The notes beneath the pieces were generated by a model, which was given only the letters and a program-made list of their open reading frames with translations, did no database searches and was not told the origin of the DNA. A program made the position numbers and the translations under genes. Below, piece after piece: positions 1,141-57,793 of a DNA stretch of 64,000 nucleotides. Origin of the DNA: Chiloscyllium plagiosum (taxonomy: Eukaryota). Numbering within the stretch: the stretch's first letter is position 1; every line of letters starts with the position of its first letter. The DNA lies in NCBI RefSeq assembly GCF_004010195.1, contig NC_057740.1, positions 43,269,633-43,333,632 on the forward strand, in the 5' to 3' direction.

Positions 1141-2885
1141 CATTCAAGACACAACCCACGCCCTCCACCTCCTCCAAGACTTCAGTTTCCCCGGCCCCCA
1201 ACATTTCATCTTCACCATGGATATCCAGTCCCTCTAAACCTCCACCCGCCTCCAAGCCAGGGCCTCCAAGCCCTCCGTTTCTTCCTCTCCGGATGTCCCC
1301 AATAGTACCCTTCCACTGACACTCATTCATTTGGTTGAACTGGTCCTCAACAATTTCTCCTACGAATCCTCCCACATCCTCCAGACTAAATAGGTAGCCA
1401 TGGGAACCTGTATAGGCCCCAGCTATGCCTGTCTCTTTGTTGGCTATGTAGAACAGTCCATCTTCACCGGCACCACTCCCCACCTCATCCTCCGCTACAT
1501 TGATGACTGCATTGGCGCCACCTTGTGCTCCCGCGAGGAGATTGAGCAATTCATCAACTTCACCAACACATTCCACCCTGACCTTAAATTCACCTGGACC
1601 ATCTCTGACACCTCCCTCCCTTTCCTGGACCTCTCCATCTCCATTAACGACGACCGACTGGACACTGATTTTATTTTTTACAAACCCACCGACTCCCACA
1701 GCTACTTGGATTACACCTCTTCCCACCCTACCTCCTGCAAAAATGCCATCCTGTATTCCCAATTCCTCTGCCTCATCTGCTCCCAGGAGGACCAGTTCCA
1801 CAATAGAACACACCAGATGGCCTCCTTTTAAGCCCACAATTTCCCTTCCCAAGTGGTTGAAGATGCCCTCCAACGCATCTCATCCACATTCCACACCTCC
1901 GTTCTCAAACCCCACCCCTCCAACCGTAACAAGGACAGAACCCCCCTGGTCCTCAACTTCTACCTCACCAACCTTCGCATAAACCGCACCGATATTTCCA
2001 CCACCTCAAATGGATCCCACCAACACAGATAAATGTCCCTTCGCACCCCTTTCCGTTTTCCGCAAAGACCATTCCGTCCGTGACTACCTGGTCAGGTCCA
2101 CGCCCCCCTACAACCTACCCTCCCTTCCTGGCACCCTCCCCTACCACCGCAGGAACTGTAAAACCTGTGCCCACACCTCCTCCCTCACCTCCATCCAAGG
2201 CCCTAAAGGAGCCTTCCACATCCATCCCAGTTTCACGTGCATATCCACCAATATCATTTATTGTATCCGTTGCTCCCGATGGAGTCTCCTCTACATTGGG
2301 GAGACAGGATGCCCCCTTGCAGAGCGCTTTAGGGAACATCTCCGGGACACCCGCACCAATAAACCCCACCGCCCCGTGGCCCAACATTTCAACTCCGCCT
2401 CTCACTCTGCCGAGGACATGCAGGTCCTGGGCCTCCTCCACTGCCACTCCCACACCACCTGATGCCTGGGAGGAAGAACGCCTCATCTTCCGCCTCGGAA
2501 CACTTCAATCCCAGGGCATCAATGTGGACTTCACCAGTTCCCCAATTTCCCCTCCCCCAACCTTACCCCAGTTCCTAACTTCCAGCTCAGCACCACCCTC
2601 ATGACTTGTCCTACCTGCCAAACTCCCTTCCCATCCGTCCCATCCTCCCCTCTGACCTATCACCTCCATCCACCCATTGTACTCTTTGCTACCTTCTCCA
2701 CAGCACTCCCCCTCCCCCATTTCTCTCTCCAGCCTGGAGGCTCCCTGCCTCCATTCCTGATGAAGGGCTTTTGCCCGAAACGTCGATTTTCCTGCTCCTC
2801 GGATGCTGCCTGACCTGCTGTGCTTTTCCAGCACCGCTCTAATCTAGACTCTGGTTTCCAGCATCTGCAGTCCTCACTTTTGCCT
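1141..2885 (+). mobile_element. 5'-truncated Penelope-like retroelement (RT + GIY-YIG endonuclease + pLTR), frameshifted
   Basis: PLE RT motifs MGTCIGPSYACLF, LRYIDD, LPFLDL, FYKPTDSHSYLDYTSSHP. CKTC linker, then GIY-YIG NIIYCIRCSR..LYIGETG..LAERFREH. Flanked by the duplication GCCTCTTAA (1132-1140 / 2882-2890). Confidence 0.92.
2753..2788 (+). ncRNA. Minimal type-I hammerhead ribozyme motif (family A) in PLE pLTR
   Basis: ATTC-CTGATGA-A-GGGC-TTTT-GCCC-GAA-ACGT-C-GATT: core CUGAUGA/GAAA, 4-bp stem II, palindromic ACGU helix III, GUC cleavage triplet (after 2784), stem I AUUC/GAUU. Confidence 0.8.
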
Positions 2886-3228
2886 CTTAATGATCAAGGA
2901 GTTCGTCTTTGTGTTGAACCTCAGGAGATGGGAGAGTTACTAAATGAATAATTCGTCTCAGTTTTTACTGTGGAAAAAGAAATGGAGTCTGCAGAATGCA
3001 AAGAAATAAACTTTGATGTTTTAAAAACAGTTCACATTACAGAAGACAAAGTTCATAAGGTTTAGAGAATATAAAAGTTGATAAACTTCCGGAACATTGT
3101 GGGAAGTAAGGGAGGAAATTACGAGATCCCTTGCAGAAATATTTGCATCATCCATAACTATGGGTGAGGTGCCTGATGACTGGAGGGTGGCTAATGTTGT
3201 ATCTTTGTCAAGAAAAATTGTCAAGAGA

Positions 3229-10263: not shown

Positions 10264-11300
10264 CTACACTGGCTGGTGACCTGGCTGGGATGTGCTGTTG
10301 CTCTGAATGAGACTCTGAGCTGACTTTCCAGAACTTGTTTCATTTCTCAGGGTAGAGATTGCAGTTCTGAGTTTATCTCTGAACTCTTCAGAGATGTAAT
10401 AGTAGATGAATGGATCAATGCAGTTATTGAAGGTGCTGAGAACTTGGCAGATCATGGTGTAAGCATAAGTGTCACTGTTGCGTGTGTTGGACTGGGCTAA
10501 CAAGATCACCTGAAATGGAGTAAGGCACAGCAGGAATACTAGCAGAACTAACAGTGTGACCTTTATCGCTTGGGCATATTGCTTGCCATTTGACACCAGT
10601 GTGGCAATGACTGACACATAGCAAAAGACAGTGATTAAACAGGGAATTGCAAAACCTAAAACCACCTGACAAGCAGTGTAATAGAAGTAGTAACCAGACA
10701 GTGCCTCGTCTGGGAGTGCATCATTGCACGTGGTGATATTGAGAGTGTGGATCCGATAAGCCTGCTGGTTGATGTAAAAAGGCAGCAGACCAAGAATGAC
10801 CAGGAGCCAGACTGTGGCACTGACGCAATATGCGGAGCGTGTCCTCCGGACTTCCTTTGAGAGGAAGGGATGTACAACAGCCAGGTACCGGTCAACACTG
10901 ATGCAAGTTAGGAACAGAATGGAACTGTAGACATTCCCATAGAACAGCACAGTGCAGGCCCGACACAGCAGCTCTCCAAAGGGCCAGTTGTTTCCCAGTA
11001 GATAGTAGGAAACTCTAAAAGGAAGGGAAAGGGTCAGGAGGAGGTCAGCCAATGCCAGGTTCAACAGGAAGATGGTAGAGGGCAGCTTTTTAATTCGAGT
11101 GAGCAGGACCCAGAGAGCCAGGGCATTGGCTGGAAGGCCAATGCTGAGCACCAAGAGATAAAGGCAGGGTAGCAGGACTGTGGTCAGTGCACTTTTCAGG
11201 TACATTGGAGTTGAATCATTGAAGGTGTTGATTGTTTTGTTTTGCTTCTGAATGATGGGGAATCTTCGGTTGCCACTTGCATCTTTCTTCCTTATGCATT
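10264..11300 (-). CDS. F2RL3: Protease-activated receptor 4-like GPCR, exon 2 (tethered-ligand region + 7TM)
   Basis: Acceptor ttttcttgcttaaatcacag ends at 11301. The phase-1 exon opens CIRKKDASGNRRFPIIQKQNKTINTFNDSTP in frame with the 313-aa ORF. PAR motifs: GLPANALALWVL, KLPST, WPFGE, SVDRYLAVVHP, TCNDALP, CIDPFIYYYISEEFRDK (PAR4 as recalled: CVDPFIYYYVSAEFRDK). Orthology versus paralogy is not resolved. Confidence 0.85.
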
Positions 11301-11756
11301 CTGTGATTTAAGCAAGAAAACATGTTACCAACAATGAGGATCGATTACAAGGGGAAAGATTGACAGGCCCCTGGTCGACACTTTGTTTCATTGAGAATTG
11401 ATAAGACGGAAGAGTTTAAAATGTGGACATGAGATCAGTATCTCCTCAATGGCAGCAGAGCGTACCCACTGACGTGGAAAGGATGCAGCTTTTAGCAACT
11501 CAACTGTTTCACCTGATCAGCAAACCTCTTGGGAATGAGATGGGGAGGTTGGACAAGAGAGCATCAGGGCTGGAGTCAGAGTCCTACAGCATGGAAACAA
11601 ACCCTTTGGTCCAATCATTCCATGCCGAACATAAACTAAACTAGTTCTACTGCCTGTGCTAGGCCCAAAGCCTTCCAAATGTTTCTTGCTCATATACTTC
11701 TCTAAATGTCTTTTAAGCACCGTCATGGTACTCACATCTGCCACTTTCTCTGGAAG

Positions 11757-11887
11757 GTTAGCCCAGCATGGTGCTGGAAAGGCACAGCAGGTAAGGCAGC
11801 ATCCGAGGAGCAGGAACCTGCTGTGCTTTTCCAGTACCACTCTGATTTAAACTCTGGTTTCCAGCATTTGCAGTCCTCACTTTTGCC
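11757..11887 (+). mobile_element. Short fold-back Penelope pLTR insertion
   Basis: Inverted arms ggtgctggaaaggcacagcaggt / acctgctgtgcttttccagtacc, pLTR end gcagtcctcactttttgcc, and an 18-bp direct duplication TGCCACTTTCTCTGGAAG (11739-11756 / 11884-11901). Confidence 0.85.
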
Positions 11888-12685
11888 ACTTTCTCTGGAA
11901 GTTCATTTCACACGCTAACCACGTATCTTGTGTAAATCTTTCTCCTCTCACCTTAAAAAATAGCCTCCTAGTCTTGAAATCCCCCATCCTAGGGAAAGGA
12001 CCTGTCATTCACCTTATCTATACTTGTCATGATTTTATAAATATCTATTGTCACCTCTCAACCTCCTAAGCTTCAGTGGTAAAAGTTCCAGCCTCTCCTT
12101 ATAACTCAAACCTCCATTCCCTGCTACATCCTGGTAAATCTCTTCTGAACCCTCTCCAGCTTAATAATATCCTTCCTGTATCAGGGAGACCAGAACTGGA
12201 CACTACTGAAGAGGCCTCACCAATATCCTGTACTCAAGGCAAGTGGGCTAAATGCCTTCTAAACCACTCTGCCTATGTGTGATGCAAATGTCAATGAATT
12301 ATTAATCTGAACCCCTGGGTCTCTCTGTACTACACCATTATCAAAGCCATACTTTTAATTGTATAAGTCTGGCCTTTGTCTGTTTTACCTAAATGCAACA
12401 CCTCACATTTATCCAAATTAAACTCAATCTGCCACTCTTCAGCCCATTGATCCAAGCTTTCTTTACAATCATAGATAACCTTTTTCACTGCCCACAATAC
12501 CATCAATATTGGTGTCACTTGCAAACTTATTAACCATGCTTTTTACATTCTCATCCAAATTGTTTATATAAATTACAGTCAAAACTGGACACAATATTGA
12601 TCCCTGGGGAATCCTGCTGGTCACAGGCCTCCAGTCTGAAAAGCAACCCCACCACCACCACCACCCTTTGTCTTCTACTAACGAG

Positions 12686-12880
12686 GAGAAAGTGAGGTCT
12701 GCAGATGCTGGAGATCAAAGTTGAAACTTTATTGCTGGAACAGCACAGCAGGTCAGGCAGCATCCAGGGAACAGGAGATTCGACGTTTCGGGCACAGGCA
12801 AGGGCCTGTGCCCGAAACGTCGAATCTCCTGTTCCCTGGATGCTGCCTGACCTGCTGTGCTGTTCCAGCAATAAAGTTTC
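12686..12880. mobile_element. Fold-back Penelope pLTR insertion with a perfect 77-bp inverted repeat
   Basis: Arms 12723-12799 and 12804-12880 with a 4-nt loop AAGG. 15-bp duplication TCTTCTACTAACGAG (12671-12685 / 12879-12893). Confidence 0.9.
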
Positions 12881-13499
12881 TTCTACTAACGAGCCAATTT
12901 TGTATCCAATTGGCAAACTCACCCTGAATCCTATGTGATCTAACTTTACTAATTACTTTATCATGCCAAACCTTGTCAAAGGGTTTAGTAAAGTCCAAGT
13001 ATACAATGTCTACCTCTCTGACCTCCATCAATCTCCTTGGTTACTTCCTCAAAAAATTGAATCAAGTTTGTGAGATACGATTTCTCACACACAACCATGC
13101 CAGTAATCATTCCTCACTTCTCCAAATACATATAAATCCTAGCTTTCACAATCACTTCGAACAACCTACCACCACTGAAGTCAGACTCGGGTCTATACTT
13201 TCCAGGCTTCTCCTTACATTTGTTTTCGAACAAAGGCACAACGTCAGCCACTCTGCGGTCATTTGGCACCTCACCCGTAGTTATAGATGATACAAATATT
13301 TCTACAAGGGGCCCCACAATTTTCTTCCTAACTTGGAGGGCCGGCAGAGTGAGTGTCAGAAGGGGGGGCGGTGGGTGGTGGTGAGTGTCAGCTTAGCAGG
13401 ACACAGTCACCTGCAGGTCCAAGCCTGCCTGCCAGTGCAGTGTGTGCCCCTCCAGAGGGTAAAACTTCAATCATCCCCTTCCCTGATGATCTTGACTTG

Positions 13500-13722
13500 G
13501 GAAAAATTGAGGACTGCAGATGCTGGAGATCAGAGCTGAAAATGTGTTGCTGGAAAAGCACAGCATCCAAGGAGCAGGAGAATTGACGTTTCGGGCATAA
13601 GCCCTTCAGGAATGAGGAAAGTGTGTCCAGCAGGCTAAGATAAAAGGTAGGGAGGAGGGACTTGGGGGAGGGGCATTGGAAATGCGATAGGTGGAAGGAG
13701 GTTAAGGTGAGGGTGATAGGCC
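13500..13722 (-). mobile_element. Penelope pLTR running into a gap; hammerhead core has a 3-nt deletion
   Basis: Minus strand ATTC-CTGA(---)AGGGC-TTAT-GCCC-GAAACGTC-AATT at about 13581-13613. Confidence 0.8.
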
Positions 13723-16850: not shown

Positions 16851-19066
16851 TATATCTAAAATTCTACTCAGATCCATAGGATTACTTAGCCCTATACAGT
16901 GCATATTGCTGCCATTAGCAGATGTAGGACAGTAAACCCTGGAGTGGATGGTGGCATACAAATTAACTTAGGATAAAGGAAATCTCTTGAATGGTGTTAC
17001 CGTCATTGAATCCCCCACCATCAACATCCTGAGAGTTACATTGACCAGAAACCTAATTGGATTTGCCACATAAACACAGTGGCTACAACAGCAGGTCAGA
17101 GGTTAGGAATACTGCGGCAAGTAACTCACCTCCTGACTCCCCAAAGCCTGTCCATCATCTACAAAGCACAAGTCCACCAGGGAGTGTTGTCGTTGGTGGG
17201 TAAGTTGTTGGAGGGGATTCTGTGGGACAGGATTTATATGTATTTGGAAAAGCAAGAACTGATTAGGGATGGTCAGCATGGCTTTGTGTATGGAAAATCA
17301 TGTCTCACTGACTTGATTGAGTTTTTTGAGGAAGTAACAAAGAGGATTGATGAGGGTAGAGTGGTAGATGTGATCTATATGGACTTCAGTAAGGCATTCA
17401 ACAAGGTTCCCCATAGGAGACTGGTTAGCAAGGTTAGATCTCATGGAATACAGGGAGAACTAGCCATCTGGACACAAAATTAACTCAGAGGTAGAAGACA
17501 GAGGGCGGTGGTGCAGGGTTGTTTTTCAGACTGGAGGCCTGTGACCAGTGGAGTGCCATAAGGATCGATGCTGGGTCCAGTACTTTTCGTCATTTATATA
17601 AATGATTTGGTTGTGAACATAGGGGGTGCAGTTAATAAGTTTGCTGATGATACCAAATTTGGAAGTGTAGTGGACAGCAAAGAAGGTTAGCTCAGAGTAT
17701 AACGGGATCCTGATCAGATGGGCGAATGGGATGAGGAGTGGCAGATGGAGTTTAGTTTAGATAAATACGAGGTGCTGCATTTTAGAAAGGCATTCAGGGC
17801 AGGACTTATATATTTAATGGTAAGGTCCTCGGGAGTGTTGCTGAACAAAGAGACCTTGGAGTGCAGGTTCATAGTTGTTTGAAAGTGGTGTCGCAGGTAG
17901 ATAGTGTAGCGAAGGAAGTGTTTGGTATGCTTGCCTTTACCGGTCAATGCATTGAGTTTGGACATGGGTTAGGCCACTTTTGGAATACTATGTGCAATTC
18001 TGGTCTCCCGGCTTTAGGAAGGATATTGTGAAACTTGAAAAAGTTCAGAAGTGATTTACAAGGATTTACAGGGGTTGGAGGATTTGAGCATTAGGGAGAG
18101 GCTGAATAGACTAGGGCTGTATTCCCTGGAGAGTCAGAGGCTGAGTGGTGACATTACAGAGGTTTATGGAAATGTGAGGGGCATGAGTAGTGTGAATGGT
18201 CAAGTTCTTTTCCCTAAATGGTAGGGGAGTCCAAAACTAGAGAGCATTGGTTTATGTTGACAGGGGAAAGATCAAAGAGGGACCTAAGGGGCAAAAGGTT
18301 CACACAGAGGGTGGTGCATGTATGTAATGAGCTGCCAGAGGAAGTGGTGGAGGCTGGTACAATTACAACATTTAGAACATAGAGCATATAAAACATAGAA
18401 CATTATAGTGCAGTACAGGGCCTCAATGTTGCACCAACCTGTGGAACCAATTTGAAGCCCAACTCTCCAATACTATTCCGTTTTCATCCATATTTTTATC
18501 CAATGCCCATTTAAATGCCCTTAAAGTTGGCAAGTCTACTATTGGTGCAGGAAGGGCATTCCACGCTACTACTCTCAAAGTAAAGAAACTACCTCTGACA
18601 TCTGTCCTATATCGATCACTCCTCAATTTAAAGCTATGTCCCCTCATGTTAGCCATCACCTTCAAGGAAAAAGGCTCTCACTGTCCACCCGATCTAACCC
18701 TCTGATTATCTTATATGTCTCTATTAAGTCACCTCTCAACCTTCTCTCTAATGAAAACAGCCTTGAATCCCTCGGCTTTTCCTCATAAGACCTTCCCTCC
18801 GTATCAGGCAACATCCAGTAAATCTCCTCTGAACCCTTTCCAAAGTTTCCACATCCTTCCTATAATGTAGTGACCAGAACTGTTTGCAATACTCCAACTG
18901 TGGCTGCAGCATGACCTCATGGCTCTGAAACTCAATCCCTCTATCAATAAAAGCACACCTTCTTAACAACCCTATCAACCTGGGTGTCAACTTTCAGGGA
19001 TCTATATACATGGACACTGAGATCTCTCTGCTCATCCACACTACAAAGGATTTTACTACTAGCTTT

Positions 19067-23830: not shown

Positions 23831-24518
23831 ATAGCTCTTGGGACTTTTTTCAAATTATACAGTTCATCTCTTTCTATAAACTTTGGATAATTAACTTGAT
23901 TTCAAGAAGCTTACATTTAAAAAGATTATTCTGAGTCATTGCCATTGCAGAGTATAAAGTGTTCATTGCAAATTTATGAAGAATAGACTGGCCCCAAATT
24001 AAAGGATTGTCTGGCTTTGAGATGTGTGGAGCAGTCTGACTGTAACAGCCTTCAGCAAGATGGCTGCAGGTAGAGAAATTCTCAGTCTCTGCCTATCGAG
24101 AGTCGCCAAAGGCTCAAATCCAGGAACAGAAGTCCATAATATTTAGAAGTTGGAGCCAGCCATTTGTCACCTTGAATCTGTTCCAATATTCACTACAATC
24201 ATGGCTGATCCTCTACATGATCTTCACCTTGCCATTCAGCTCCACATCCCTTGATTCCCCTGAGACTAAAGATCCAGTAAATGATCCTGAACGTCCACTT
24301 GCTGCTACTTTAACACTCTGCTCTGTTCCCAGGCCAACATCCCTGGCTCAGGGTTGCTGCAGTGCTCCAGAGAAGCTAAGTGCAAGTGGGAGGAACACCA
24401 CCTTGTTTTCTGCATAGAGACCCTGCAACCTTCTGCACCCAATATCAAGTTCAATAATTTCAGTTCTGAGGTAGGGTCACTCATCTGAAAATATTAACTT
24501 TGATTTCTCTCCAGTGAT

Positions 24519-24800
24519 GGTGGCACAGTGGTTAGCACTGCTGCCTCACAGCGCCAGGGACCTGGGTTCAATTCCAGCCTCGGGCGACTGTCTGTGTGGA
24601 GTTTGCACATTCTCCCCGTGTCTGCGTGGGTTTCCTCCGGGTGCTCCGGTTTCCTCCCACAGTCCAAAGATGTGCGGGTTAGGTGAATTGGCCATGCTAA
24701 ATGTAGGGGAATGGGTCTGGGTGGGTTGCTCTTCGGAGGGTCAGTGTGGACTTGTTGGGTCGAAGGGCCTGTTTCCACACTGTAAGTAATCTAATCTAAT
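24519..24800 (+). mobile_element. HE1-like tRNA-derived V-SINE
   Basis: tRNA head (tggcacagtggttagcactgctgcctcacagcgccagggacctgggttcaattcc), V-domain tgtgtggagtttgcacattctccccgtgtctgcgtgggtttcctccgg, CR1-like tail and (AATCT)n end. Confidence 0.88.
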
Positions 24801-36745: not shown

Positions 36746-37239
36746 GAGACCCTCTAAAGGTGGAGCAGTCTCTCAGTTGTGCAATAGGAATGTCTTATTA
36801 ATCATTTGTTCTCATTTTGAACAACTTTTCCTTTAACTCATCTCATTTTCTCTGAGACAAAGGCCATGGGGGTACCCACCCAGGTCAAGCTATGCCTGTT
36901 TCTCTCTGGGATACGTGGAATATGTTTTGTTCCAGACCTATGTGGGCCTCCATCCACAACTCTTTCTCCAATAATCAACATGTAATCAGTGCTATTTCCT
37001 CCTGTAGTCTGCATTTGGAAAAACAATCCTCAGCTTTGTTTCTGATTGTCATCCTTGTTTTACCTTCACCTCTGGTCCATCTCTGACTCTTCCCTTTCTT
37101 GACTTCACTATTCCCATTTCTCTGAACAATATCCACTACAAAACTCCAACTACCCTTCCTCACACCCTGCTTCCTACAAGGATCCATTCCATTCTCCCAG
37201 TTTTGTTTTGTCTCCATTGCACTGTTCTCATATAAAACA

Positions 37240-38360
37240 AAGTACTGCAGATACTGGAAATCTGAAACAAAGACAGAAATTTCTGGAGAACTCAGCAGGT
37301 CTGCCAGCATCTCTGGAGAGAAACATCAATATTTCAGGTCCAGTGACCCTCAGGACATTTCTGATGTAGAGTCACTGGATTTGAAATGTTAACTCTGCTT
37401 TTTCTCCATGCATGTTGCCAGGCTTGCTGTATTCTCCAGCAATTTCTGCACTTGGTCTGATGATGCCACCTTCCACTGGACTGCCTTCAACACTTCCTCC
37501 TTTATCCTCAAGCAAGGATTCACCCTCACTGTGGTTGTCAGAGTCCTCAACCATTGTCTGATTCACCTCCTACACAACCCTTCCCTCCTTTCCACCCCAC
37601 CTGTCTCCACATTCGAAGGAATGATTGCCATTTCTGACACCTCCAGCAAGATATCAAATACACCTTCTCCTCCCCTCCATTGTCAGCATTCCACAGAGAC
37701 TGTTCCCTTTCTGATACCCCCCTGTCACTCGTCTAGCACTCCTCAGACTTCCTCCCTTCCCCATGGCATCTTTCCATGCAATTGCAGCAAGTGTAACTCT
37801 TGCGTATTCACCTCCTCATGCCTCACTTTCCAAAACCCCAGTTGCAACTTCCAGGTGAAGCAGCATTTTATTTGAGCTTCTACTGCATTCACCTCTCACG
37901 ATGTAGTTTGCTTTACATTAGTGAGACCAAATGGAGCCTGAGTGACTGTTTTGCAGAACACTTCCACTCTGCCAGTTGCTTGCTGCTGTTTCATTAAGTC
38001 ACCTTGCTCTGGTGCTAACATCCAACCAGTGAAGCTCAACACAAACTCAAGGACCAGCATCTCATTTTCCACTGAGGCACTTCACAGGCTCAAGGACCCA
38101 ACATTGAGTCTCACAACTTCAGAGCATGACCTCTGACCTCCAGTTTGGTTACAACTCAATCACTCCTTTAGCCCAATGGTGTTCCTTTGGTTTTTTGCTG
38201 TGGACATTTCATAATCTGTTCCAATCGCTTCTCCTCCTACTCTGTCAATAACATGAAAGACAGCATTTCCCAACTCCTTCCATTTCTGAAAAAATGTCAT
38301 CTTGGAACTGAAACATGAACTCAGTTTCTCTTTTTACAGATGCTGCCAATGTGTTGAGTT
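37240..38360 (+). mobile_element. Old Penelope-like element with inverted pLTR at its left end
   Basis: Decayed FPCNCSKCNSC and YCIHLSRCSLLYISETKW..CFAEH. Inverted ends ctggagaactcagcagg / gctgtattctccagcaatttc; eroded hammerhead cores at about 37361 and 38286. Confidence 0.7.
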
Positions 38361-41390: not shown

Positions 41391-42298
41391 GCACCCCTGC
41401 ACGTTCCTCTCCAAGCCACTCACCATCCTAACTTGGAAATATATCGCCATTCCTTCATTGTGGCTGGGTCAAAATCCTTGAACTCCCTCCCTCAGGGCAT
41501 TGTGGGTCAACCTACAAGGGGGCAACTAGGGACGGGCAATAAATGCTGGGCCCAGCCAGCAACACCCACATCCTGTGAGCGAATAAAAAAATGTTACAAC
41601 TGCTTCTTTTACAAATCACCTCAAATCTCTCCCCCCTTGTTCTTGATCCTTGGGCCAATGGGAACAGTCTCTCTCCATCTACTCTGCCGAGATCCCTGAG
41701 AATTTTGATCACCTCTCAACCTTCTCTTCTGCACTGTGAACTGGCGCAGCTTTTCCAACAACCCCACATCACTGAAGGCGTTTTCTGTACCCTCTCCATC
41801 CAATGTTGTGCTGTCCTCCCTTCACTGTGATGCCGAGACCTGAATATAACGGTGTGGTGGAGGCTGAATCAGTATCCGTTACAGGCTTAAAATCACTTCC
41901 TTGCCCCGAATAACAAAGCCCAGATTATTGTCAACTTTGTTGATAGTGTTCCCAACCTGTCCTGACACACTAATGATCTCTGCACATCTCCATCCAGCTC
42001 CCACTGCACCTGAACCCGCTGTAAAACTGTGCCCTATATTTTGTATTTTCTCTCCATACTTTATGCAAAAATAAATTACGTCAGGCTTGTTTGCATTAAA
42101 TTTTCATCTGCCTCTTGTCTATCCTTTCCGCCAACCTGTCCATACCCTCTTGCAGTTCAAAAACCGAAATCACTGGAGAAACTCAGCAGGTCTGGCAACA
42201 TTTGTGTGAAGGAAGCAGAGTTAACGTTTCTAATTCAGTTTCTGGATTAGTGGTGCTGGAAGAGCACAGCAATTCAGGCAGCATCCGAGGACAGGCAA

Positions 42299-42334
42299 AA
42301 TCGACGTTTCGGGCAAAAGCCCTTCATCAGGAAT
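42299..42334 (-). ncRNA. Minimal hammerhead motif (family A)
   Basis: Minus strand ATTC-CTGATGA-A-GGGC-TTTT-GCCC-GAA-ACGT-C-GATT. Confidence 0.8.
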
Positions 42335-43738
42335 AAAGGCAGAGAGCCTGAAGCGTGGAGAGATAAGCTAGAGGAGGGTAGGGGTGGGGAGAGAGTGGCA
42401 TAGAGTACAATAGGTAAGTGGGGAAGGAGATGAAGGTGATAGGTCAGGGAGGAGAGGGTGGAGTGGATAGGTGGAAAAGGAGCTGGGCAGGTCGGACAAG
42501 TCCGGACAGGTCAGGGGACCGAGTTTCTGGAGGTTAGAAGCTAGGATGAGGTGGGGGAAGGGGAAATGAGGAAACTGTTAAAATCCACATTGATGCCCTG
42601 GGGTTGAAGTGTTCCGAGGCGGAAGATGAGGCGTTCTTCCTCCAGGCGTCTGGTGGTGAAGGAGCGGCGGTGGAGGAGGCCCAGCACCTCCATATCCTCG
42701 GCAGAGTGAGAGGGGGAGTTGAAATGTTGNNNNNNNNNNNNNNNNNNNNNNNNNNNNNNNNNNNNNNNNNNNNNNNNNNNNNNNNNNNNNNNNNNNNNNN
42801 NNNNNNNNNNNNNNNNNNNNNNNNNNNNNNNNNNNNNNNNNNNNNNNNNNNNNNNNNNNNNNNNNNNNNNNNNNNNNNNNNNNNNNNNNNNNNNNNNNNN
42901 NNNNNNNNNNNNNNNNNNNNNNNNNNNNNNNNNNNNNNNNNNNNNNNNNNNNNNNNNNNNNNNNNNNNNNNNNNNNNNNNNNNNNNNNNNNNNNNNNNNN
43001 NNNNNNNNNNNNNNNNNNNNNNNNNNNNNNNNNNNNNNNNNNNNNNNNNNNNNNNNNNNNNNNNNNNNNNNNNNNNNNNNNNNNNNNNNNNNNNNNNNNN
43101 NNNNNNNNNNNNNNNNNNNNNNNNNNNNNNNNNNNNNNNNNNNNNNNNNNNNNNNNNNNNNNNNNNNNNNNNNNNNNNNNNNNNNNNNNNNNNNNNNNNN
43201 NNNNNNNNNNNNNNNNNNNNNNNNNNNNNNNNNNNNNNNNNNNNNNNNNNNNNNNNNNNNNNNNNNNNNNNNNNNNNNNNNNNNNNNNNNNNNNNNNNNN
43301 NNNNNNNNNNNNNNNNNNNNNNNNNNNNNNNNNNNNNNNNNNNNNNNNNNNNNNNNNNNNNNNNNNNNNNNNNNNNNNNNNNNNNNNNNNNNNNNNNNNN
43401 NNNNNNNNNNNNNNNNNNNNNNNNNNNNNNNNNNNNNNNNNNNNNNNNNNNNNNNNNNNNNNNNNNNNNNNNNNNNNNNNNNNNNNNNNNNNNNNNNNNN
43501 NNNNNNNNNNNNNNNNNNNNNNNNNNNNNNNNNNNNNNNNNNNNNNNNNNNNNNNNNNNNNNNNNNNNNNNNNNNNNNNNNNNNNNNNNNNNNNNNNNNN
43601 NNNNNNNNNNNNNNNNNNNNNNNNNNNNNNNNNNNNNNNNNNNNNNNNNNNNNNNNNNNNNNNNNNNNNNNNNNNNNNNNNNNNCCCACCCCCACCCTCC
43701 TCTAGCTTATCTCTCCACGCTTCAGGCTCTCTGCCTTT

Positions 43739-43774
43739 ATTCCTGATGAAGGGCTTTTGCCCGAAACGTCGATT
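43739..43774 (+). ncRNA. Minimal hammerhead motif (family A)
   Basis: ATTC-CTGATGA-A-GGGC-TTTT-GCCC-GAA-ACGT-C-GATT. Confidence 0.8.
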
Positions 43775-44539
43775 TCGCTGCTCCTTGGATGCTGCCTGAC
43801 CTGCTGTGCTCTTCTAGTACCACTAATCCAGAATCTGGTTTCCAGCATCTGTAGTCATTGTTCATACCTCGTTGTTTCTAATTCAGTGACTGATGGCGCT
43901 AACGGGTTTCTCTCCACAGACACTGCCAGACTGGCTGTTTTGCTATCAGGTCTCCAGTACCCGCAGTCCTCTATATCCCCAGGCACACAGCGAGCAGTGA
44001 AAGCGGTGACCCAAGTATGATCTGTTCCTGGGAACAGCACAGACGGACCCAGTGAGGGTGGCCCGGTTTTGCATTCTCAGTTTCACTGACAGAGGATTCT
44101 GAAATCAATCAGGGCGAGCAAATAAAGTTAGCAAAAAAAACGTCCGAGGCAGAGATGTTGATACATGTAACAGGAAAAATAATGCGGGAAATGTTCAGCC
44201 CAGACCATGTTCAGCCGCCTCCTTCTCGCATTCCTGAATGTGTGTGTGAATGTGAGAGAGAGGGTTCTCAGACTCTCACTCTGACTCTGTGTGTGTCAGA
44301 GAGAGAGCTAAGACTCTGCCCTGACTGTGAGAGAGAGAGCCTGGACCTCTCTCTCTCCCGACTCTGTCTGAGTGTCTAAGAGAGACTCCGGTCCCGCTCT
44401 GTGTGTGTGTGTGTGTGTGAGAGAGAGGGGGGGGTTCTCAGACTCTTCCTGTGTGTGAGAGAGCCAAGACCCCACTGTCTCTGCTTCTTTCTCTCAAACT
44501 GTGTGTGTCTGTGTGTGTGTGTGTGAGAGAGAGCTGGGA

Positions 44540-47500
44540 GCCGCTGCCTCTCTCTCTCTCCTGACTGTGTGTGTGTCTCTCTCTCCTGGTTGTTTGTTTG
44601 TGTCTGTGAGAATGTCGCCCTCTCGCCTGAGTGTGTGTCTGTCTGTGAGAGTGTCTCTCTCTCCTGAAACTGCCTCGCACTCTCTCCTGACTGTGTGTGA
44701 AAGTGTCTCTCCCTCCCTCTCCTGACTGTGTCTGTGAGAGTGTCTCTCCCTCTCTCTCCTGACTGTGTGTCTGTGAGAGTGTCTCTCCTGACTGTGTGTC
44801 TGAGAGTATCTCTCCTGACCATGTGTCTGTGAGAATCTCTCCTGACCGTGTGTCTGTGAGTATCTCTCCCTGTCTCTCCTGACTGTGTGTCTGTGAGATT
44901 ATCTCTCCTGACTGTGTGTCTGTGAAAGTGTCTCTCCCTCCCTCTCCTGACTGTGTGTCTGTGAGAGTATCTCTCCCTCCCTCTCCTGACCGTGTGTCTG
45001 TGAGTATCTCTCCCTGTCTCTCCTGACTGTGTGTCTGTGAGATTATCTCTCCTGACTGTGTGTCTGTGAGAGTATCTCTCCCTCTCTCTACTGACCGTGT
45101 GTCTGTGAGAGTATCTCTCCTGACCGTGTGCCTGTGAGAGTGTCTCTCCCTCTCTCTCTCCTGACTGTGTGTCTGTGAGAGTAGCTCTCCTGACTGTGTG
45201 TCTGTGAGAGTATCTCTCCCTCTCTCTCCCGACTGTGTGTCTGTGGGAGTGTCTCTCCCCCTCTCTCCCGACTGTGTGTCTGTGAGAGTAGCTCTCCCAC
45301 TGTCTCCTGACTGTGTCTGTGGGAGTGTCTCTCCCTCTCTCTCCTGACTGTGTGTCTGTGAGAGTGTCTCTCCCTCCCTCTCTCTCCTGTGTGTCTGTGA
45401 GAGTGTCTCTCCCTCTCTCTCCTGACTGTCTGTGAGAGTGTCTCTCCCTCTCCCTCCTGACTGTGTGTATGTGAGATATCTCTCCCTCTCTCTCCTGACG
45501 TATGTGAGATATCTCTCCCTCTCTCTCCTGACTGTGTGTCTGTGAGAGTGTCTCTCCCTCTCTCTCCTGACTGTGTGTCTGTGAGAGTGTCTCTCCCTCT
45601 GTCTCCTAACTGTTTGTCTGTGAGAGTGTCTCTCCCTCTCTCTCCTGACTGTGTGTCTGTGAGAGTGTCTCTCCCTCTCCCTCCTGACCGTGTGTCTGTG
45701 AGAGTGTCTCTCCCTCTCTCTCCTGACTGTGTGCCTGTGAGAGTATCTCTCTCTCTCTCCTGTGTGTCTGTGAGAGTGTCTTTCTCTCTCCTGACTGTGT
45801 GTCTGTGAGTGTCTCTCCCTCTCTCTCCTGACTGTGTGTCTGTGAGAGTGTCTCTCCCTCTCTCTCCTAACTGTGTGTCTGTGAGAGTGTCTCTCCCTCT
45901 CTCTCCTGACTGTGTGTCTGTGAGAGTCTCTCCCTCTCTCTCCTGACCGTGTGCCTGTGAGAGTGTCTCTCCCTATCTCTCCTGACTGTGTGTCTGTGAG
46001 AGTGTCTCTCCCTCTCCTGACTGTGTGTCTGTGAGAGTGTCTCTCCCTCTCTCCCCTGTCTGTGTGTCTGTGAGAGTGTCTCTCCCTCTCTCTCCTGACC
46101 GTGTGCCTCTGAGAGTGTCTCTCCCTCTCTCTCGTGACTGTGTGTCTGTGAGAGTGTCTCTCCCTCTCTCCCCTGACTGTGTGTCTGTGAGAGTGTCTCT
46201 CCCTCTCTCTCCTGACTGTGTGTCTGTGAGAGTGTCTCTCCCTCTCTCCCCTGACTGTGTGTCTGTGAGAGTATCTCTCCCTCTCTCTCATGACTGTGTG
46301 TCTGTGAGAGTATCTCTCTCTCTCTCTCCTGACTGTGTGTCTGTGAGAGTATCTCTCCCTCTCTCTCCTGACTGTGTGTCTGTGAGAGTGTCTCTCCCTC
46401 TCTCCAGACTGTGTGTCTGTGAGAGTGTCTCTCCCTCTCTCTCCTGACTGTGTGTCTGTGAGAGTGTCTCTCCCTCTCTCTCCTGACTGTGTGTCTGTGA
46501 GAGTGTCTCTCCCTCTCTCCCCTGACTGTGTGTCTGTGAGAGTGTCTCTCCCTCTCTCTCCTGACTGTGTGTCTGTGAGAGTATCTCTCCCTCTCTCTCC
46601 TGACTGTGTGTCTGTGAGTGTCTCTCTCTCTCTCTCCTGACTGTGTGTCTGTGAGAGTGTCTCTCCCTCTCTCTCCTGACTGTGTGTCTGTGAGAGTGTC
46701 TCTCCCTCTCTCCCCTGACTGTGTCTGTGAGAGTATCTCTCCCTCTCTCTCCTGACTGTGTGTCTGTGAGTGTCTCTCTCTCTCTCTCCTGACTGTGTGT
46801 CTGTGAGAGTGTCTCTCCGTCTCTCTCCTGACTGTGTGTCTGTGAGAGTGTCTCTCCCTCTCTCTCCTGACTGTGTGTATGTGAGAGAGTCTCTCCCTCT
46901 CTCCCCTGACTGTGTGTCTGTGAGAGTGTCTCTCCCTCTCTCTCCTGACTGTGTGTCTGTGAGAGTGTCTCTCCCTCTCTCCCCTGACTGTGTGTCTGTG
47001 AGAGTATCTCTCCCTCTCTCTCCTGACTGTGTGTCTGTGAGTGTCTCTCTCTCTCTCTCCTGACTGTGTGTCTGTGAGAGTGTCTCTCCGTCTCTCTCCT
47101 GACTGTGTGTCTGTGAGAGTGTCTCTCCCTCTCTCTCCTGACTGTGTGTATGTGAGAGAGTCTCTCCCTCTCTCCCCTGACTGTGTGTCTGTGAGAGTAT
47201 CTCTCCCTCTCTCTCCTGACTGTGAGTCTGTGAGAGAGTCTCTCCCTCTCTCTCCTGACTGTGTGTCTGTGAGAGTCTTTCCCTCTCTCTCCTGACTGTG
47301 TGTCTGTGAGTGTCTCTCCCTCTCTCTCCTGACTGTGTGTCTGTGAGAGAGTCTTTCCCTCTCTCTCCTGACTGTGTCTGTGAGAGTATCTCTCTCTCTC
47401 CTGACTGTGTGTCTGTGAGTGTCTCTCCCTCTCTCTCCTGACTGTGTCTGTGAGAGTGTCTCTCCCTCTCTCTCCTGACTGTGTGTCTGTGAGAGTGTCT

Positions 47501-47595
47501 CTCCCTCTCTCCCCCCTGACTGTGTGTCTGTGAGAGTGTCTCTCCCTCTCTCTCCTGACTGTGTGTCTGTGAGAGTGTCTCTCCCTCTCTCTCCT
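44540..47595 (+). repeat. About 3-kb 39-bp minisatellite (CTGACTGTGTGTCTGTGAGAGTGTCTCTCCCTCTCTCTC)n
   Basis: About 75-80 units; the 13-aa periodicity in the ORF track confirms 39 bp. It degrades leftwards into TG/GA microsatellites from about 44240. Confidence 0.97.
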
Positions 47596-47712
47596 GTTTG
47601 GCTGTCGGGTAATGGGTGATTAATTCGCCAAATGACATCAGCGGCTGTGCTGGGGAGTGTGGAGCTGATCAGTCACAGAGCTGAGAGCTTTCACTGAGGG
47701 ACAGCTCCGCTG

Positions 47713-51546: not shown

Positions 51547-51731
51547 GGAGAAAGTGAGGTCTGCAGATGCTGGAGATCAGAGCTTAAAAATGTGTTGCTG
51601 GAAAAGTGCAGCAGGTCAGGCAGCATCAAAGGAGCAGGAGAATCGTCGAGAATAAGCCCGAAACGTCGATTCTCCTGTTCCTTTGATGCTGCCTGACCTG
51701 CTGCGCTTTTCCAGCAACACATTTTTAAGCC
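51547..51731. mobile_element. Fold-back Penelope pLTR insertion
   Basis: About 65-bp inverted arms across 51582-51730 with the junction at gcccgaaacgtc. 14-bp duplication ATGGT(C/G)TCAAGCTT (51533-51546 / 51732-51745). Confidence 0.85.
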
Positions 51732-56100: not shown

Positions 56101-57131
56101 ATGACATCATGAATTTATAAACCTCTATAAGGTCACCCTCAGCCTTGACTGTGCAGAGAAAACAGTTCACATTTTGGATTGAGTGACCCTTCCACAGACC
56201 CTTCAGTGACTAGGCAGGAATCCTGGCTATTTGTTCCCGTATGGTAAGGGCTGTTCTGTGTGAATACAGGGGGAAGACATTTCTGTCAAAAACGTGGAGA
56301 GAAAAGTGGGCTTGAGTACAAAGGAAGGATCTTGAACTGAACTTTCAGAATGTATGAGTGTAAGTATTTAGAGTGAGTAGTCAATTTGGCCCCTCAAGTT
56401 AGTCCCACAATTCTAGTTTTTTTAAAATCTGGACAGAACATTACTTGGATCTCTGGATTAACAGTCCTGTGACAATGCCACTAAGCCATCTCCTGCTCCT
56501 GAGGAGTTGCAGCAGTTCAAGAAGGCAGCTCACCACCACCTTTTCAAGGGCAACACCCATATCCTATGACAGAATTAAAATTAAACAAAATTGAGGAGCA
56601 TGGATAGAGTAAACAGAAGAAACGTTTCTCCTCAATGCAGGGGTCAATGACTGAGATTTAAGGGAAGGGATTGGAGGTTTGGAGGAATTGTGTGGAAAAA
56701 TGTTTTCACCCAGAGGGTGGTGGGAATCTGGAACTCTCTGACTGTAAGGTTGGGAAAGTCGGAAACCTTTACAACATTGAACAAGGATTTAGATGTGCAC
56801 CTCTGATATCCAGGCAGGCAGTGCTTTTGGTCAAGTGCTGGAAAATGGGGTTAGAATAGTTAGGTAGCTGTTTCTGATTGGTATGGACTTGATGGGCCCC
56901 AAGGCCTTTTTACTGTGCTGAGGATCTCTGTGACTTTCTAAAATGGCAGTAGAAACCGATTCAATAGGAACTTTCAAAAAGGCATTTGAATGAGCAGGGA
57001 AGTGGCCTCATTGGAGACCTCTTTCAAAGAGCTGGCACAAGCACAATGGGCTGAGTGGTCTATTTATAAAATGAAATTTGAAGATTGATCTCTGGTGTAT
57101 TTATGTTTGACCCTGTATCTTCCTGTTACAG

Positions 57132-57593: not shown

Positions 57594-57793
57594 GATTCGG
57601 AGATGCTGGTGTTGGACTGGGGTGTACAAAGTTAAAAATCACACAACACCAGGTTAGAGTCCAACAGGTTTAATTGGAAGCACACTAGCTTTCGGAGTGA
57701 CAATCACCTGATGAAGGAGCGTCGCTCCGAAAGCTAGTGTGCTTCCAGTTAAACCTGTTGGACTATAACCTGGTGTTGTGTGATTTTTAACTT
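57594..57793. mobile_element. Fold-back pLTR insertion, family B
   Basis: Inverted arms 57629-57697 / 57725-57793. Duplication GTAAGTGACTGT (57582-57593 / 57795-57806). Confidence 0.85.
57705..57739 (+). ncRNA. Minimal hammerhead motif (family B), sense within SHC2 intron 2
   Basis: CAC-CTGATGA-A-GGAGC-GTC-GCTCC-GAA-AGCT-A-GTG; CUA triplet, predicted cut after 57736. Confidence 0.78.

Follow-up and report, generated by a model that had tools for sequence, protein, structure and literature searches.

The stretch at 12686-12878 of the window (the whole 64,000 nt of DNA that was analysed) holds a perfect hairpin made of Penelope-like element (PLE) sequence, set into a decayed LINE and turning round at a hammerhead sequence. 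What kind of insertion is this, and does the hammerhead have a part in where it turns? We answer from the insertion and its host site, from the source family, and from the other fold-backs of the same kind in the window.

Insertion, target duplication and host site

The insert measures 193 bp. An earlier note on this DNA had described an insertion of about 195 bp made of pLTR end sequence, with a perfect 77-bp inverted repeat, a 4-nt loop and a 15-bp target duplication, and this description was borne out. In an inverted-repeat search the left arm (12723-12799, minus strand, antisense pLTR end) and the right arm (12804-12880, plus strand, sense pLTR end) are 100% identical, with 4 nt between them. 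The flanking 15-bp direct repeat (12671-12685 and 12879-12893) is perfect, and the 2 nt at 12879-12880 are common to the right arm and the target duplication. The earlier description lacked an unpaired stretch of 37 nt (12686-12722, minus strand). This is the PLE 'tail', found on the left arm only and lying between two presumed reverse-transcription start sites; the right arm is without it and ends at the inner start site. The insert aligns over its full length with the pLTR ends (final 120 nt) of longer PLE copies found in the window. Folding of the fold-back gave a z-score of -23, and none of 200 shuffles was equally stable. Matches to miRNA-like hairpins in Rfam, below the gathering score, were rejected as chance matches to a perfect hairpin.

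The host is a decayed LINE reverse-transcriptase fragment (12300-13150, minus strand), recognised by its translations and by six paralogous places in the window, and presumably CR1-like by its motifs. Two of the paralogous places reach across the insertion site and are 208 and 211 bp shorter there. The difference of 208 bp is exactly the insert plus one duplication and, together with the single target copy in the LINE paralogues (one at 17491-17498), it shows that the insertion is real and recent. Contig pieces from three DNA runs of other, related animals (44,014, 45,985 and 59,901 pieces, LINE flanks included) were placed on the reference; the rows examined were the best 12 of 32 insertions or deletions, 15 of 614 joints, 12 of 600 between-letter rows and 18 of 2,224 loose ends. 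Many LINE paralogues in all three runs skip the stretch, with loose ends at 12684 in 853, 621 and 858 contigs, and the loose-end consensus contains one copy of the target motif. Skips from about 12634-12649 to 12892-12898, which come from paralogous LINE copies, were seen among the best 15 of 614 joints; the 208-nt skip expected of an empty orthologous site was not among these 15, and no contig spans the locus.

A perfect mirror could also be an assembly artefact, or a MITE-like unit that moves as a palindrome. The identity of the arms, the many gaps in the assembly and the lack of a spanning contig would fit such an origin, yet we regard it as very improbable. It leaves unexplained the perfect duplication and the exact size difference to the host-LINE paralogue, and the tail is asymmetric at a known position. 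Older fold-backs in the window have arms of 78-95% identity and cannot be mirrors made by an assembler. A palindrome that propagates itself should give many copies with the same centre. In the rows listed (the best 12 of 32 insertions and 15 of 614 joints) the centres differ, and three insertion rows at 12797-12799 (among the same best 12 of 32) have the same arms around other centres; perfect palindromes break contigs, and these counts are to be read accordingly. Since centres vary between these copies, the mirror is probably built anew each time. The 12686 element is a real, young insertion of two PLE end pieces placed head to head.

The stem II loop variant carried by this copy (at 12806) accounts for 59% and 55% of the depth in two organism A runs, and for 2% in organism B; depth here does not equal copy number, and the split suggests a young subfamily specific to one lineage. 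The element and a second fold-back at 11757 sit 1.4 and 0.45 kb, respectively, upstream of a GPCR frame (10264-11307, minus strand), possibly in an intron. This frame is intact, with 347 codons, and is closest to proteinase-activated receptors (PAR4, E 5e-70; PAR2, E 1e-67). If intronic to the GPCR gene, the 77-bp hairpin would form double-stranded RNA.

The source family and its minimal hammerhead

The reference copy of the family is a long, decayed PLE (1394-2890, plus strand), in which an intact minimal hammerhead and a tail come after fragments of the reverse transcriptase and of GIY-YIG. Its GIY-YIG fragment scores just under the Pfam cut-off (E 1.6e-4; 22.3 bits against 22.6). The best homologue of this fragment is a protein labelled Chiloscyllium punctatum (77% identity), and 23 of 192 candidates passed E 1e-10. 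In two homologues that were read over their whole length (P0001 and P0014), a single ORF holds the reverse transcriptase, a CxxxxCxxC linker and the endonuclease; the linker is degenerate in the window copy, where the ATG of the hammerhead core opens a frame of 17 codons. A CX2-5CxxC linker between reverse transcriptase and endonuclease marks Neptune and is shared by Nematis (PMC8557442). The family is an endonuclease-bearing PLE, by its linker of putative Neptune or Nematis type, and the source PLE is probably Neptune-type.

Units of such PLEs consist of a pLTR, an adjacent inverted and 5'-truncated copy, and a tail of 30-40 bp at one end (PMC8557442, PMC3846280, PMC2377424); the tail is defined in PMC8557442 and PMC11167929. 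The same elements are present here: a pLTR end, aligned to 2757-2886, which follows the GIY-YIG fragment, the inverted truncated copy, the 37-nt tail and the target duplication. Like published EN+ units, the 12686 element has head-to-head inverted pLTR pieces, a tail at one end only, a target duplication and a palindrome at the junction; it differs from them in having neither an ORF nor a direct pLTR, being reduced to two inverted ends. That inverted pLTRs are known for PLEs, as the earlier note said, agrees with all three sources on unit structure. Its recurrent class of ORF-less palindromic insertions is no separate class: the element is an ordinary PLE by-product, the known inverted pLTR plus tail, whose layout is already published.

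The hammerheads at 2757, 42330, 43743 and 57708 are intact in all features of the min-HHR, that is a CUGANGA core, an extra nucleotide, a stem II with G10.1-C11.1, GAAA and a palindromic 15.2-16.2. In detail, they show the core, an extra A, a stem II of 4 bp, GAAA, the palindromic ACGU and a stem I of 4 bp, and by these features the intact window copies carry the minimal hammerhead defined in PMC4209133. The core, the extra unpaired nucleotide, the G-C first pair, the palindromic tetramer and the short stem I of intact copies are as described there, whereas stem II has 4-5 bp here and 7-8 bp in Schistosoma, and the 12686 element has lost the core. In an Rfam search, no hammerhead was found at E values up to 1. 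Three core-like sequences (5151, 10230 and 35214) did not match the family and were excluded. Patterns made from the family sequence had no match in genome, viral or metagenome contigs, and one raw RNA run placed 0 reads on the reference.

Three further stretches of the window were seen in passing. At 24380-24524 (plus strand) the apparent end of a PLE endonuclease frame directly abuts a third-family hammerhead, and the piece is cut off by what we take, from its resemblance, to be a tRNA-like SINE. A decayed third-family piece at 56149-56215 (minus strand) has an apparent short duplication of the core and the start of stem II. The region 44376-47672 is a complex GA/CA-rich tandem repeat of about 3 kb with long spurious open frames.

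Where the fold-backs turn

Positions are numbered from C3 of the CUGAUGA core (+1), so that stem II occupies +9 to +20 and the predicted cut falls between +28 and +29. In the 12686 element stem II lies at 12802-12813 (plus strand; 4 bp, with the 4-nt loop variant CTGT), followed at 12814-12825 (plus strand) by GAAA, the palindromic ACGU that replaces helix III and the 3' strand of stem I, according to the anatomy in PMC4209133. From the hammerhead numbering, the cut is predicted between 12821 and 12822 on the plus strand. The left arm reaches to +11, within the 5' strand of stem II, and the right arm begins at +7; the junction (12799/12800) is blunt and without microhomology. Stem II is therefore present in both arms (10/12 and 12/12 nt), and both overrun the predicted cut, by 18-22 nt. 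The earlier note had placed the turn exactly on stem II (GGGC-CTGT-GCCC). Instead, the element turns at the 5' foot of this stem; its loop (12800-12803, plus strand) is not that of stem II but AAGG, native +7 to +10, which comprises A9, the extra unpaired A and the first two G of stem II. The turn does remove the core from this element (+1 to +6 are missing), except for A9, which is kept. Lacking a complete motif, the element cannot be a ribozyme, and with stem II standing in both arms it cannot come from one snap-back.

By inverted-repeat searches, BLAST and profiles, the window holds 7 pairs of pLTR pieces placed head to head, which belong to three sequence families. We judged the arm ends visually on alignments, and for old copies these readings may be off by a few nt. 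Ends called by profiles match them in the first family; in the other two the profiles run through the palindrome and were not used. The outer arm ends always lie at one of two fixed places. Two further fold-backs that the earlier note had named as turning at the hammerhead proved real, each with a duplication. In the first (51547-51731, first family) the arms end at +9 and +17, and the 14-bp duplication has one mismatch. In the other (57594-57793, second family) the left arm ends in the loop of stem II (+14 to +16), and the right arm begins at -7 to -5 and keeps a complete core, so that removal of the core is not general. Two older third-family fold-backs, unnamed by the earlier note, also turn at the hammerhead, and in both the duplication is not clear: 37232-37448 has arm ends at about +8 and -2, and 42140-43971, split by the insertion at 42241-43873, at about +11 and +18 to +25. 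The latter is a case of nesting: the stem II/GAAA region of this older 42140/43960 copy took up a long first-family fold-back, with a 14-bp duplication (42226, 43874). This long-armed fold-back (42241-43873) is a counterexample and was likewise unnamed before: its junction lies in an assembly gap, and it reaches upstream past the core by about 400 nt in the left arm and at least 58 nt in the right. The fold-back at 11757-11887 switches further downstream, as the earlier note said, with arm ends at +33 and +57, beyond the hammerhead, and an 18-bp duplication. Both of its arms stop at one six-base motif, present at two places of the pLTR, and there is a small local hairpin at the junction. The target duplications of the fold-backs at 51547, 57594 and 11757 measure 14-18 bp each.

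Thus five of the seven fold-backs have both arm ends inside the hammerhead span (-7 to +32), one turns downstream and one far upstream. With arms treated as fully coupled, a count of at least 5 in 7 has a probability of 0.045 when the visible range is 30-150 nt and of 0.010 when it is 30-200 nt; under the most favourable exponential decay it is 0.03. An end at +7 to +11 occurs in four of the six resolved fold-backs, but this interval was picked post hoc, and the corrected P is about 0.07. The ends cluster on the 5' side of the hammerhead, -7 to +17, and not at the 3' foot of stem II (+20/+21). Tail-arm position minus inner-arm position has a mean of 6-14 nt, against 37 nt expected from equal run lengths (P 0.0006-0.01 over four readings, n 5-6), which ties the ends to position or to one another rather than to run length. 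A positional tendency toward the 5' side of the hammerhead is probable, in a small sample (n=7). The idea of a tighter spread of ends among tail arms than among inner arms was dropped because the tail side of 42140/43960 is uncertain. Short solo pieces start at about 0 to -8 (52609, 24466 and 38285) or far downstream (24799).

The same picture might arise with no special link to the hammerhead. Assembly gaps would hide long arms, very short arms would go unseen, and the hammerhead fills much of the visible range, 60-140 nt away from the start sites. Indeed, the 42241/43873 fold-back and a copy at 13500 end in N gaps, the cautious nulls leave the values of 0.045 and 0.03 given above, and two of the five hammerhead-turning fold-backs were chosen by the earlier note for that property. 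Against this, two of the three fold-backs found independently turn at the hammerhead, three families of different sequence behave alike, and tail and inner arms agree in where they end rather than in how long they are. We judge this explanation unlikely.

The contigs of other animals offer a one-sided sample. Among the rows listed, 8 junctions are fold-back-like: three have both ends in the hammerhead, with centres differing from that of the 12686 element, three have one end in the hammerhead and the other at +50 or beyond, and two have both ends downstream (about +40/+49). The reference has its junction at stem II and holds no upstream sequence, so these rows are biased toward the positional claim and cannot be counted as a test of it. 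In run X13 a joint from 12767 to 12733 shows a contig returning to the inner start site after ten other letters. Here pLTR ends form a partial tandem, which is the other layout known for PLEs. A fading of the loose-end consensus 5-10 nt upstream of the core was rejected as a sign of clustered 5' ends because the window subfamilies already differ there.

Origin of the fold-backs

By its layout, duplication, tail, arm ends and blunt junction, the 12686 insertion is a dead-on-arrival product of an endonuclease-bearing PLE. For its formation we favour, with moderate confidence in the model as a whole, two target-primed cDNAs on uncut RNA, both ending on the hammerhead's 5' side before they are joined head to head. 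The GIY-YIG endonuclease would nick both target strands 15 nt apart. Each nicked 3' end would prime a cDNA, one at the end of the tail and the other at the inner start 37 nt further in, and uncut RNA would be the template for both. The cDNAs would pass the predicted cut and stem II and stop at the 5' side of the hammerhead, after which their 3' ends would be joined by a template jump or by host end-joining, and the gaps filled. The RNA template itself probably starts a few nt upstream of the core, so that ends gather there, and the stem II hairpin of the cDNA may help to set where trimming or joining stops (+7 to +11); ends at those positions could be shortened run-off products. The hammerhead would mark the place, and its cutting would play no part. 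A tail on one arm only and an inverted 5'-truncated copy match the published PLE layout, which counts for the model. Five long single copies (2757, 40553, 52261, 13600 and 19067), like the 42241/43873 fold-back, extend far upstream of the hammerhead, which shows that templates do not always start near the core. The five listed contig junctions with one or both ends downstream likewise count against the model.

The earlier note proposed the ribozyme hairpin or its cleavage end as a preferred site of stalling or template switching. The clustering of ends supports a positional link to the hammerhead in a small sample; the cleavage end is not supported. If the ends recorded a 5' end made by hammerhead self-cleavage, they should lie at the cut, and in the preferred readings 0 of 12 resolved arm ends are within 3 nt of it, and most arms run past it, those of the 12686 element by 18-22 nt. 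The nearest cases are the inner arm of the 11757 fold-back, whose end at +33 is 4 nt past the predicted cut, and an alternative reading of the 51547 left arm, which would end at +28, within that distance. Loose ends at the cut site (12781 and 12822) were absent from the best 18 of 2,224 rows. PAc (Poseidon of Anolis carolinensis) uses uncut RNA for insertion and needs no hammerhead cleavage, and no RNA reads starting or ending at the cut were found (PMC11167929). We hold a cleavage-made end to be highly unlikely.

Stem II might instead be the active cause: the end of a cDNA would fold into the hairpin and prime itself, or two cDNA ends would anneal by self-complementarity. The best case is the 51547 fold-back, whose turn shares GCCC in a snap-back geometry on stem II; in one reading it runs antisense across all of stem II and changes to sense at the shared GCCC (antisense 12/14 nt, sense 8/14 nt). 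A picture similar to that of two cDNAs would result if one cDNA snapped back and was resolved at the inner site, and such a course fits this fold-back well. The cDNA copy of stem II forms a hairpin of -2.6 to -4.0 kcal/mol in all three families, the left arm at 57594 ends in its loop, and palindromes at PLE inverted junctions are interpreted as self-priming in PMC3846280, where hammerheads are not brought in. The 12686 junction, however, is blunt with stem II in both arms, which is incompatible with one snap-back, and the right arms at 37232 and 57594 start upstream of the core. Clean snap-back geometry is seen in one of six resolved junctions, and even there it costs a 5-nt deletion and two substitutions. 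Active folding of stem II is possible as a general cause, though we think it doubtful. The ends speak against stalling at the +20/+21 foot of stem II, and template switching on stem II fits the 51547 fold-back only.

L1 twin priming likewise starts cDNA at both target nicks and leaves an inversion flanked by target duplications. Its two cDNAs copy different stretches of the RNA, whereas here both would copy the same stretch and yield a fold-back. Non-LTR retrozymes (10.64898/2026.07.22.740005) resemble the 12686 element in being non-coding, hammerhead-bearing and related to pLTRs, but they are head-to-tail tandems with complete motifs, whereas the element is head-to-head with none complete, and it was ruled out as a retrozyme on these grounds. 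The favoured model follows PAc, which nicks and extends both target strands and starts at two sites that bound the tail (PMC11167929). The family described here differs from Poseidon by its CxxxxCxxC linker, of Neptune/Nematis type, and by a core ATG that opens only the 17-codon frame. That study maps start sites, and not 5' ends or inversion junctions. Our search of mainly open-access literature found no paper that maps PLE inversion junctions onto the hammerhead.

How PLE insertion is completed, and what weakly active hammerheads are for, are called open in PMC11167929, PMC8557442 and PMC4209133. One bold answer would be that the conserved job of the min-HHR fold, or at least of stem II, is to mark the end of reverse transcription and not to cut, with the cDNA hairpin priming itself or joining the cDNAs. 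We consider this improbable; if true, the hairpin would be the PLE route to second-strand completion and the reason why inverted pLTRs arise. On the favoured model of two cDNAs, short fold-backs would be a record of where both of them ended. The tens of thousands of family contig pieces per run suggest a copy number in a shark genome sufficient for a base-level histogram of breakpoints, and such a histogram could separate the RNA-start, hairpin and cleavage models. The positional pattern is a modest, testable refinement of what is known of PLE insertion.
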